A DNA stretch of 64,000 nt from an uncultured bacterium (GTDB lineage Bacteria; Omnitrophota; Omnitrophia; Omnitrophales; Aquincolibacteriaceae), in the NCBI GenBank assembly GCA_964562525.1, contig CAZLTL010000001.1:32950-96949 (forward strand). The letters run 5' to 3'. Position numbers and translations under genes: made by a program. Positions 44,316 to 47,813 of this stretch are shown here, one piece after another (within the stretch, counting starts at the first letter, position 1; each line of letters starts with the position of its first letter). The notes beneath the pieces are model-generated. The model made no database searches and was not told the origin of the DNA. It saw nothing but the letters and a program-made list of their open reading frames with translations.

Positions 44316-47300
44316 ATGTCTGAAGTTAACTTAGAAAAAGCACTTGGGTTGGTCAACGGTCATAACTCAAGCAAATCTCAAGACAAAAAAACATACCAGC
44401 TCATTAACCAAAAGTTGGCGGCTTTGGGCTGCCCGGTTTTCCGTGATGAGCTCGGCACAGTAAAACTCCGCGAGAAAAGCACTCATGGTTCAGCTCCCGC
44501 CGATCTTTGTCCGGCGGATAAGCGCGTCCAAAATTTTTTACATGACTATCTTAAAGATGTTTGCGGAAGCCAAACTCCGAAACTGCCGCACCGAACACTC
44601 ATCTTAGACCGGCACGGCATCGCGCGCGCACTTTCATTGCCGCCCGATCAGGATTCTTTTACCTCAGATGTCATTCGCTCTTACCGCATTCAACAGGGTG
44701 TCTTGCACAATCCGGCCAATGACCGCCGCACAACACAAGGTGTCTTTCACGTCACGGAAGGCGGGTTGCCGATTCCGGATGATAAAAAAGCGGTTCCTAA
44801 AAAAGTTTTTGCGGCATTACTGAATGCAGCGCTCTGCGCGCCTAAAAACCTACTCCAGCTCCCATTTACTTCTTCGCAAAAAGATCAGGCCGAAGCATTC
44901 GTGTCCTTGCTGCTGCGTCCGATTATCTGCCCGGAAGTGCCGGGATATATTCCTGAAAAGTCGATGGAAATTCGCTTTGTCGCGCCTGGCAATCTGGTCA
45001 GCAATCTCGACTTTGTCGAATCGATCTTCGGCAATGCAGGCGATCCTTATCTTCCCGAAAATAATTCCGCGCTGGATGTCGAACACTGGAGCGGGCATAC
45101 AGGCTATGTTCTTTTAGCGCCGCATCTCACAAAATTAACCAAAAAAGAGCTCGGACTTCCTCACTTTGACAATGCGACTGAACGTCAAAAACACGACGGC
45201 ATGTGCTGGAAAAAACCGGAAGAGCTTTACAATGACGGTTCCGCTTTCAAAGTGACCTGCCGTGATGAGCGCGGAGTCATCGTAACCATCATTGCGGACA
45301 ATTATTACGGTTATTGCAAAAAGGAAGTTAAAACTCAAATCAGTTATGCGGCTAATTTATTCGGCATCGCTGAAGAAGAGCATGCTGGCGGAGCGCTTGC
45401 TTTCGCAGGTTATGACTTGGGAGATCAATTCGACCTGAGCCCTGCCTTGGTTCGAAACCCAACCACGTTTGATGAAATGAGCCGCATTTTCGCATCCATT
45501 ATGGATTTGCAGCCTGAGGGTTACGGAATTGATAAGAAAAACAAAGACATTCTCTATGTTCCTGAAAATGCGCGCTTCAATATGCACCTTCAAACCGTAA
45601 GCTGGGAAAGAAACGAAAAAATCCAGACGATTCATCTCAAGGCATACCATCATTACATTTTGCCTTCGGGTTATAAGATCACACTGCGCAAGCGCATTGA
45701 CGGAAAAACATGGTATCTCGTCGGAATTGCGCCTGAAGGCACTCTCTGTCATAAACCCTGCACGGTTTCAGGCGGCGGAAAATCTGAAATTTCTAAATCG
45801 ATTATGGATGCCGTCGTGCCGAGCTCTTTCTATGTCAACAATCTGACCAAAGATTTAGACATGGTCGAAGAGATTATGCGCCATGACTTTACAAAACGTT
45901 ATCGCGACACTTCAAAAAACAAACCCAAAAGCCGGCCCATCCTTAGCCCGGACCGCTCGCTCGGCTCCGTCATTAAGCTGTTTTCAGCCTCCCCCGAATA
46001 TACGGATGAATACAACGCGTGGATCAACTCACTCATCCCCTCAATCAAAGATTTGATTTACCTTATCAAATGCTATTACAGAAATGAATGGGGACAGAAT
46101 TGGCGCGAACATTTCACCGTGGATATCATGAATGGTTATTTGGGCCATGAACTTAAGCTCGATGGCCGCAAAGTGGTTTCAAGTTATTTACGCGTCGGCT
46201 ATGAACCGGATGGCACACGCCGTGTTTTCCGTGTTAGACAAGATTTTACGGCAGCTCAAAAGCTCCAAGTGGAAGATGATATCACTGCCTCAGCGCTTGT
46301 TCCGGCATCCAGCATTAAACATTTGAATCCGGAATATAAAAATCCCAGCGTCAAAGTTGTCCAAAATTGTGAATACCGTCTTTTTCAACGCCCCGATGAC
46401 GCGATTCACCGCGGTTACGATAAACAGGCTGAGCTCGATCTTTCCAGCCCTAACACTTTTCTTTCGAATTATGAGCCGCTTACCCAAAAAGCCGTGCATG
46501 AAATTATCGAAGATGCAATCGGGTTTGATAGTTATACCGATGCCGTCAAAAATATGCTGACCGACTTTATGAAAAACGAGACCTCGGAATTTGCCGCGAC
46601 ACCTTCCCATCCGCGAATTGTGGATGGCAAGCCGTCCAAAAATCCGCGCTACTTGCAAACGCGCATGGATGTTACCAATCCGAAGCTAAAGTACCTTTGT
46701 GAAATTGGAACAAGAATTTCGCGCAAAGTTCCGCCTTCGGAACCGCTGACTTTTACGGTCAATGCCATTTTGGCGGGGCGGCGCAACAATCCTCCAGAGC
46801 CCAAACACGGCATTAAACCGCTCGCGGTTTACAATCCTATTCATTATCAGGAATTGCCGGAGCTCTTCATGGATTTTGTTTCGAGTGTCACGGGTAAATC
46901 CCCATCGACAACCGGGTTTGGTTCGGAGGGAGCCCTCACAAAAGGTCCTTTCAACGCACTGTTCCCTTCGGCGGATTTAAACAATGCTTTTCTTTCTTTT
47001 ATTTTGGGAGATTACGCCGGCTTCTCATCAGCCGCGGGCTATGTCGGGCCTCAATACCGCGTTGAGCATGACATTAGCTTGCTGGTCCCGGAGATCTGGT
47101 GCCGCCTTACGGCCGCGGAGCGCGACCCTAACTATCTCATCCGTGAAGGTCATCTCGAACCGGTAAAAGATTTTGAGCACAAGGGAGTCAAAGTTCCGGC
47201 CAGCATCTTGGGCTATCGAATTACCTATAAATTCGTGAATTACTTTTTAGGTCGAATTTTCAACAACCCCAACTTTGTTTTCCCTGAAGCAATGCTTCGT

Positions 47301-47813
47301 CCGGAAACGCAAAGCATGGATACATTCATTGAAGGTATCGATAACCTCATGCAAACCCACGAGCAAGTCGCACGGCATTATTTGAATGACGGCAGCGTCG
47401 AGACACTTGTTCCGCCGCTTAAAGCACTGATTCACATTATGGCGCACGGCAACTACAATGGCATGGATCGACACAGCCCTGAATTTAGAAAAATGTTCAG
47501 CCGCGATGCTGTTGTCAAATCCGACTGGTATCAAGCCCGCCTCAAAAAGAAACAAAATTGGGATTTATGGCTTTGGCAGCGGCATGAAGAAACGCTGCTT
47601 AAATATTCCGCGGAGTGTGAAGATCCGCAGCTTGTAAAAAAACTAAAAATTGAAGCCAAACTCAAGCAGGCGCGAGCTGAAATCAAACGTATCAGTTCGG
47701 AGAGCTATCTCGCTGAATTGACAGGAACGATTGGGTCGGATGTGATGTTTCAGGTTCCGGGCGCAAAACATCCGCATTTATCTCATCAGGAAAAACTCGC
47801 TGCCGCGCGGTAA
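44316..47813 (+). CDS. Very large (1165 aa) cytoplasmic enzyme; candidate PPi-dependent phosphoenolpyruvate carboxykinase (PPi-PEPCK).
   Basis: Size matches the ~130-kDa PPi-PEPCK family. The segment YLVGIAPEGTLCHKPCTVSGGGKSEI aligns with the GTP-PEPCK P-loop region (lGItnPeG...[10 protein letters not shown]). Confidence 0.45.
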   Translation: MSEVNLEKALGLVNGHNSSKSQDKKTYQLINQKLAALGCPVFRDELGTVKLREKSTHGSAPADLCPADKRVQNFLHDYLKDVCGSQTPKLPHRTLILDRHGIARALSLPPDQDSFTSDVIRSYRIQQGVLHNPANDRRTTQGVFHVTEGGLPIPDDKKAVPKKVFAALLNAALCAPKNLLQLPFTSSQKDQAEAFVSLLLRPIICPEVPGYIPEKSMEIRFVAPGNLVSNLDFVESIFGNAGDPYLPENNSALDVEHWSGHTGYVLLAPHLTKLTKKELGLPHFDNATERQKHDGMCWKKPEELYNDGSAFKVTCRDERGVIVTIIADNYYGYCKKEVKTQISYAANLFGIAEEEHAGGALAFAGYDLGDQFDLSPALVRNPTTFDEMSRIFASIMDLQPEGYGIDKKNKDILYVPENARFNMHLQTVSWERNEKIQTIHLKAYHHYILPSGYKITLRKRIDGKTWYLVGIAPEGTLCHKPCTVSGGGKSEISKSIMDAVVPSSFYVNNLTKDLDMVEEIMRHDFTKRYRDTSKNKPKSRPILSPDRSLGSVIKLFSASPEYTDEYNAWINSLIPSIKDLIYLIKCYYRNEWGQNWREHFTVDIMNGYLGHELKLDGRKVVSSYLRVGYEPDGTRRVFRVRQDFTAAQKLQVEDDITASALVPASSIKHLNPEYKNPSVKVVQNCEYRLFQRPDDAIHRGYDKQAELDLSSPNTFLSNYEPLTQKAVHEIIEDAIGFDSYTDAVKNMLTDFMKNETSEFAATPSHPRIVDGKPSKNPRYLQTRMDVTNPKLKYLCEIGTRISRKVPPSEPLTFTVNAILAGRRNNPPEPKHGIKPLAVYNPIHYQELPELFMDFVSSVTGKSPSTTGFGSEGALTKGPFNALFPSADLNNAFLSFILGDYAGFSSAAGYVGPQYRVEHDISLLVPEIWCRLTAAERDPNYLIREGHLEPVKDFEHKGVKVPASILGYRITYKFVNYFLGRIFNNPNFVFPEAMLRPETQSMDTFIEGIDNLMQTHEQVARHYLNDGSVETLVPPLKALIHIMAHGNYNGMDRHSPEFRKMFSRDAVVKSDWYQARLKKKQNWDLWLWQRHEETLLKYSAECEDPQLVKKLKIEAKLKQARAEIKRISSESYLAELTGTIGSDVMFQVPGAKHPHLSHQEKLAAAR

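Follow-up and report, generated by a model that had tools for sequence, protein, structure and literature searches.

The pyrophosphate (PPi)-dependent phosphoenolpyruvate (PEP) carboxykinase (PPi-PEPCK) of Entamoeba histolytica has a subunit of approximately 130 kDa. Genes of this family were first identified in E. histolytica, according to passages of two later articles that refer to the original work (Chiba et al. 2015, cited in PMC8100219 and PMC10441589). Citing passages of the second article describe PPi-PEPCK as homodimeric and state that its structures resemble those of other PEPCKs while its sequences do not (Chiba 2019, cited in PMC10441589). Two bacterial enzymes of this type, from Actinomyces israelii (AiPEPCK, 6K31) and Propionibacterium freudenreichii (8E1U), have been assayed and their structures solved. 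We analyzed a 64,000-nucleotide (nt) stretch of contig CAZLTL010000001.1 from an uncultivated Omnitrophota-like bacterium (the window) for an open reading frame (ORF) at positions 44316-47813 of the plus strand. We put the probability at roughly 93% that this ORF encodes a PPi-PEPCK (PEP carboxytransphosphorylase, EC 4.1.1.38) orthologous to the A. israelii, P. freudenreichii and Entamoeba enzymes. All positions refer to the whole window, and residue numbers refer to the 1165-residue protein.

Family membership and fold of the 1165-residue protein

The ORF was listed with an ATG start and 1165 codons, corresponding to a protein of about 130 kDa by length, and by direct reading of the sequence a Shine-Dalgarno-like AGGAG (44303-44307, plus strand) is located 8 nt 5' of the ATG. 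The length fits the family subunit of about 1100-1200 residues with its extra lobes. When the protein was compared by phmmer to all PDB sequences, only two matches were found, 6K31 (1193 bits) and 8E1U (1174 bits), both at E=0 and near full length (query residues 64-1141). A family profile of 22 members, reaching down to 26% identity, scored 1504 bits to both of these proteins over positions 21-1153 and recovered no other credible PDB sequence at E≤10, the ATP- and GTP-PEPCKs included. Identity to the two assayed bacterial enzymes was 45-49%, and the protein displayed no private insertions or deletions when aligned to 27 and to 21 family members.

The predicted fold agreed with these matches. 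An AlphaFold2 monomer model was generated from a 28-sequence alignment, with a mean predicted local distance difference test (pLDDT) score of 77 and a predicted template modeling (pTM) score of 0.77. By Foldseek, this model superposed on 8E1U and 6K31 at E=0 with template modeling (TM) scores of 0.83-0.90. Beyond these two structures the Foldseek scores dropped to 7.4 or less; among the matches listed, ranks 11-33 were ATP- or GTP-PEPCK entries (9-10% identity in the structural alignments), followed by noise. The model thus displays the fold of the solved PPi-PEPCKs together with the catalytic core fold common to ATP- and GTP-PEPCKs, and the succession of Foldseek matches indicates that the protein consists of a PEPCK-type core whose size is increased by extra lobes.

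Scans of Pfam and NCBIfam at E≤1 detected no family in the protein. This result is explained by the version of the Pfam-A library used, which lacks PF26300 (PEPCK_PPi_lobe_2), and does not speak against membership. PF26300 is an existing Pfam model dedicated to this family, and the precomputed tables assign it to each of the 120 homologues listed, among them P0001 (89% identity). The initial annotation had proposed a PPi-dependent PEPCK from the sequence alone and had suggested comparison to characterized members of this family; the proposal is borne out by the near-full-length phmmer matches, the superposition of the model and the retention of every family-invariant motif described below. The protein is a typical and unremarkable member of a known, structurally characterized and widely distributed family, and it is presumably specific for PPi.

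Invariant motifs and the presumed active site

Invariant positions were taken from a diverse family alignment with members of 26-90% identity to the query. Residues found to be invariant were R138, T140, F144, Y330, G332, K335, K336, H356, G358, S485, G488, K489 and E491, followed by D654, D655, E686, R692, D694, E706, N718, N776, R778, S862, E871, T875, K876, F879 and H918. All of these were identical in 6K31 and 8E1U in the visible phmmer alignments. Conservation of catalytic Lys and Arg residues had been named as a check by the initial annotation; among the presumed catalytic residues, it was found for R138, K335, K336, K489, R692, R778 and K876. Near-invariant columns were departed from only at A175, A558 and I570, all outside of the motifs.

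Roles may be suggested for several of these residues by analogy to E. coli PckA and rat cPEPCK. The loop carrying R138, T140 and F144 (residues 132-145, NPANDRRTTQGVFH; 44709-44750, plus strand, as for all motifs below) is identical in both crystal-structure proteins, is modeled at low pLDDT and may be the counterpart of the oxaloacetate/PEP-binding Arg loop of ATP- and GTP-PEPCKs. In DNYYGYCKK (residues 328-336; 45297-45323), the invariant Y330, K335 and K336, which stand with the invariant G332, would correspond to Y207, K212 and K213 of E. coli PckA (Y207-G-G-E-M-K212-K213); the best local match of PckA residues 200-235 was to residues 330-352, a marginal result with a score reached by 25 of 500 shuffles. 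The invariant H356 of EEEHAGGA (residues 353-360; 45372-45395) is a candidate metal-ligand His equivalent to E. coli H232, and its spacing from K336 is 20 residues versus 19 residues between K213 and H232 of PckA. The kinase-1a-like P-loop (residues 483-494, TVSGGGKSEISK; 45762-45797), with S485, G488, K489 and E491 invariant, is identical in both crystal-structure proteins, and its K489 and S490 are the likely counterparts of P-loop K254 and T255. By motif resemblance, D654 and D655 of EDDI (residues 653-656; 46272-46283) may match the metal-binding Asp of the GDD(E/I) motif of ATP- and GTP-PEPCKs, and N776 and R778 of NPR (residues 776-778; 46641-46649) may match the N-x-R substrate-binding motif of GTP-PEPCK; these four residues are invariant in the family alignment and both motifs are conserved in 6K31 and 8E1U.

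Conservation within the family is highest at residues 859-880 (TGKSPSTTGFGSEGALTKGPFN; 46890-46955), a block that includes the invariant S862, E871, T875, K876 and F879. Since pLDDT values were below 50 for residues 859-878 of the model, this block is probably a mobile loop. Low-pLDDT segments were found to overlap several of the motifs (residues 122-141, 483-488, 689-718, 769-782 and 859-878), as expected for mobile PEPCK loops.

The P-loop was also the region in which the initial annotation had seen a parallel to the nucleotide-binding region of GTP-PEPCK. The peptide on which this parallel was based, YLVGIAPEGTLCHKPCTVSGGGKSEI, does occur in the protein (residues 467-492), and the string from GTP-PEPCK to which it was compared is genuine (rat cPEPCK 263-296). 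The resemblance between them, by contrast, was at the level of chance. The best Smith-Waterman match of the rat 34-mer was at residues 145-182 instead of the quoted site, and 125 of 500 shuffles scored as high; the P-loop segment of the E. coli ATP-PEPCK picked residues 484-493 at a score reached by 224 of 500 shuffles. The family alignment was also compared by hhalign to E. coli PckA, both by itself and together with about 115 close homologues, which were at least 86% identical to the PckA seed among the matches listed and added no profile depth. The top pairing aligned VSGGGKSEIS (residues 484-493) with LSGTGKTTLS (PckA 249-258) at a probability of about 1% and a pairwise E of 0.045; a second, collinear match (E of 0.5) aligned residues 298-353 (…YYGYCKKEVKT…GIAE) with PckA 180-230 (…YGGEMKKGMFS…GIAS). 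No match to the PEPCK_ATP or PEPCK_GTP Pfam domain was detected even at E≤1. Thus, the P-loop parallel pointed to the right location yet is no evidence on its own; the identification is right because of the direct match to PPi-PEPCKs, and similarity to GTP-PEPCK is not the decisive evidence.

Gene neighbourhood and other features of the window

The stop codon of the PEPCK gene (TAA, 47811-47813) abuts the ATG at 47814 of a 309-codon ORF for an LpxL/LpxM/LpxP-family acyltransferase (47814-48743, plus strand). This ORF scored 147 bits to PF03279 (cut-off 22) and below cut-off for 17 of 17 NCBIfam models (best 148 bits versus 248), an assignment at the level of the family. It is followed on the same strand by mtnA for an S-methyl-5-thioribose-1-phosphate isomerase (IF-2B/MtnA protein; 48824-49951), which scored above the equivalog cut-offs of NF004326 (464.7 bits; cut-off 271) and TIGR00512 (422 bits; cut-off 279); by these scores the MtnA assignment is secure, and the true start may be a few codons downstream of 48824. 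Next is a 197-residue ORF for a divergent class II aldolase/adducin-family protein (49951-50544, plus strand; PF00596, 51 bits) with weak PDB matches to AraD epimerase and aq_1979. The ORF coordinates, the TAA-ATG junction and the order of an LpxL-family gene and mtnA given in the initial annotation agree with the coordinates and domain scores above. The label mtnB, which it had assigned to the next ORF, was not confirmed: 49951-50544 scored 29.6 bits to the MtnB (methylthioribulose-1-phosphate dehydratase) equivalog TIGR03328 (cut-off 137) and 23 bits to NF006672 (cut-off 226), and reached only the class II aldolase family (Aldolase_II). The cluster is flanked by clpB (50611-53244, minus strand), which converges on it, and by a DUF4126 membrane protein gene (43523-44200), which lies upstream of and diverges from the PEPCK gene. 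Scans for promoters and terminators around the cluster gave counts at shuffle expectation (9 sites versus 8.1 expected and 14 versus 11.2). The cluster is uniform in guanine-plus-cytosine (GC) content, and no signal of foreign DNA was seen in the GC profile.

The grouping had been described as an odd operon, and the conservation of these neighbours was examined in contigs of five close relatives (L001-L004 and L007; protein identity of 89%, 84% and 80%) and in 82 distant loci (two 61%-identical relatives and 80 genome loci). The PEPCK gene is followed directly by an LpxL-family gene in all five close-relative contigs, and the abutting of stop and start codons recurs in L002 and L003. By contrast, tblastn of the flanks (±6-10 kb) detected LpxL, MtnA or aldolase homologues in none of the 82 distant loci. 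When the flanking ORFs of all 87 loci were clustered, no neighbour family was found in more than 8 loci; the commonest were an ABC-F ATPase (8 of 87) and a DUF2126/ATP-grasp set (5-6 of 87), and the top families (ABC-F ATPase, DUF2126/transglutaminase protein, circularly permuted ATP-grasp protein and sensor kinase) are unrelated to the PEP node. The mtnA-aldolase pair was detected only in the window and in L007, in which the full four-gene order recurs. Segment 48707-50613, which lies between lpxL and clpB, is missing as a clean indel from the closest relatives, L001-L004; the pair is a variable cassette. Since the PEPCK-lpxL pairing is confined to close relatives and conserved neighbours are lacking, the grouping is a lineage-specific juxtaposition. 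The adjacency noted initially is therefore real but phylogenetically shallow, a recent arrangement of a small lineage without evident metabolic logic and not a conserved operon. Co-transcription of the PEPCK gene and its abutting LpxL-family gene within this clade is plausible.

The abutting codons, the shared PEPCK-lpxL order at 80-89% protein identity and the return of the four-gene order in L007 could instead be taken to mean that the four genes (PEPCK, lpxL, mtnA and aldolase) are a genuine functional operon joining the PEP/oxaloacetate node, lipid A acylation and methylthioribose salvage. We regard this as improbable in view of the distant loci, the low ceiling on neighbour families and the absence of the cassette from L001-L004; judging from established pathways, the four products would also share no common substrate. 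Similarly doubtful is a scheme for an Omnitrophota clade in which the PPi-PEPCK is translationally coupled to the LpxL-family protein and the MtnA-aldolase cassette is appended in some members, possibly for a salvage of methylthioribose or 5-deoxyribose to triose phosphate of the dihydroxyacetone phosphate (DHAP)-shunt type. For this scheme we presume that an mtnA-class II aldolase pair could include a DHAP-shunt-type aldolase acting on methylthioribulose-1-P or 5-deoxyribulose-1-P. If the four genes were truly co-regulated, they would represent an undescribed coupling of PPi-based C3/C4 metabolism, envelope lipid acylation and salvage of an S-adenosylmethionine by-product.

Additional features were observed in the cluster and its surroundings. 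In L001 (metagenome-assembled genome [MAG] GCA_002344825.1), the LpxL homologue at 13502-14683 was recovered by tblastn in two pieces (13502-13816 and 14078-14671) separated by a gap of about 260 bp; the homologue is intact in L002 and L003, and the split may reflect an assembly error or a disrupted gene. Two inverted CBM_11-like paralogues (42777-43376, plus strand; 56216-56986, minus strand), about 13 kb apart, bracket the PEPCK-to-methyltransferase region, and each cross-matches the homologue of the other in relatives at about 69% nucleotide identity. Following a tRNA-Pro(GGG) gene (57114-57187), a segment of about 3.8 kb is absent from related contigs (region 57114-61019) and carries a lipase-maturation-factor-like (LMF1) protein (57443-58900) and a 604-residue ORF with no Pfam match (59004-60818, minus strand); this segment may be a tRNA-adjacent insertion. 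Segment 29777-36596, which L001 and L002 (collinear contigs of Omnitrophota MAGs) lack, includes a convergent two-partner-secretion (TPS) pair of a ShlB/FhaC-type transporter (29799-31556, plus strand) and a 1601-residue TPS-domain exoprotein (31553-36358, minus strand). Tandem DUF6973 paralogues of 372 and 384 residues, preceded by ORFs with no Pfam match, are located at 18000-20276 (minus strand), and a stop-free frame of at least 1975 codons (1-5925, minus strand), encoding a giant protein, continues beyond the left edge of the window.

Distribution, metabolic role and comparison with known systems

The best match to the protein, at 89% identity, is from Candidatus Omnitrophota MAGs, with contigs of which the window is collinear at 72-84% nucleotide identity; the exact 1165-residue protein has no identical entry in the assembly index. 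A word-indexed search detected homologues in at least 8000 clusters at 90% identity. Each of the 120 homologues listed covers at least 93% of the query, at 55-89% identity; most are recorded as 'hypothetical protein' and a few as 'phosphoenolpyruvate carboxykinase (diphosphate)'. An exhaustive search of 50%-identity representatives, many of them fragments, found 2350 clusters at E≤1e-3, of which 673 reached E≤1e-30. Of 600 stretches matched in species-representative genomes, 590 were confirmed, giving at least 590 genomes. Hosts among the matches listed, which do not extend to the closest (Omnitrophota) genomes, include Bacteroidota, Verrucomicrobiota, Acidobacteriota, Planctomycetota, Elusimicrobiota, Lentisphaerota, Ignavibacteria-like lineages and Gammaproteobacteria (Methylococcaceae and Sedimenticola). 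A 2020 review placed PPi-PEPCK in 'limited lineages' (PMC8100219); the counts of genomes and of clusters at E≤1e-30 indicate that the family is far more widespread than this wording. Our results add Omnitrophota-like bacteria to the phyla carrying PPi-PEPCK and provide a secure functional name for a gene whose closest relatives are recorded publicly as 'hypothetical protein'.

A number of points weigh against the assignment as a PPi-PEPCK. Only a handful of family members appear to have been assayed, none of them from Omnitrophota, and the residue roles proposed above are assigned by motif analogy. The sequence-level link to ATP- and GTP-PEPCKs was not significant by Pfam, hhalign or Smith-Waterman shuffles. 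Furthermore, Pfam scans of 40 other ORFs across the 64-kb window detected no PPi-dependent phosphofructokinase (PPi-PFK), pyruvate phosphate dikinase (PPDK), H+-pyrophosphatase (H+-PPase) or other PEP-node enzyme. With a family of this size, so few assayed members and an identity of just 45-49% to the bacterial enzymes among them, the protein could be a paralogue of shifted function, using polyphosphate or a nucleotide as donor or another keto acid as substrate, in which case EC 4.1.1.38 would be wrong. This is quite unlikely, as the match is collinear over the full length, all family-invariant residues are kept, private insertions and deletions are absent, and identical motifs are found in the enzymes assayed from A. 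israelii and P. freudenreichii. That the protein is simply an enlarged canonical GTP- or ATP-type PEPCK is scarcely credible given the lack of PEPCK_ATP and PEPCK_GTP matches at E≤1, the failure of the family profile to recover such enzymes from the PDB at E≤10 and the structural-alignment identity of 9-10%.

As a PPi-PEPCK, the protein would catalyze the reversible reaction PEP + CO2 + Pi <-> oxaloacetate + PPi (Pi, inorganic phosphate) on a PEPCK-type core. This core would include Lys489 in the P-loop, a metal site of Lys335/Lys336, His356 and Asp654/655, and Arg138 and Arg778 for the carboxylate substrate, with the extra lobes decorating it and doubling the size relative to ATP- and GTP-PEPCKs. 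In an anaerobic Omnitrophota-like bacterium, the likelier direction would be carboxylation of PEP, with the phosphoryl bond conserved as PPi, by analogy to Propionibacterium and Entamoeba (PMC8100219). The gene is one piece of evidence for a possible PPi-conserving central metabolism and becomes meaningful only when the remainder of the genome is considered (PPi-PFK, PPDK, H+-PPase and other C3/C4 enzymes).

Compared to the P. freudenreichii and A. israelii enzymes, the motifs of the window protein are identical residue for residue. The proteins differ in an N-terminal segment of about 60 residues, which phmmer leaves unaligned to the crystal sequences and which shows conservation across homologues from Omnitrophota, Bacteroidota and Verrucomicrobiota, and in their hosts, as 8E1U and 6K31 are from actinobacteria while the window is from an uncultivated Omnitrophota-like bacterium. 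PPi-PEPCK1-3 of E. histolytica, likened here by description, are eukaryotic enzymes of the same family present as three paralogues. By contrast, ATP-PEPCK (PF01293, E. coli PckA) and GTP-PEPCK (PF00821/PF17297, rat cPEPCK) are about half the size and use a nucleotide instead of PPi as phosphoryl donor; relative to these enzymes, the PPi enzyme has large inserted lobes, one from H356 to K489 (about 130 residues) and one from K489 to D655 (about 165 residues).

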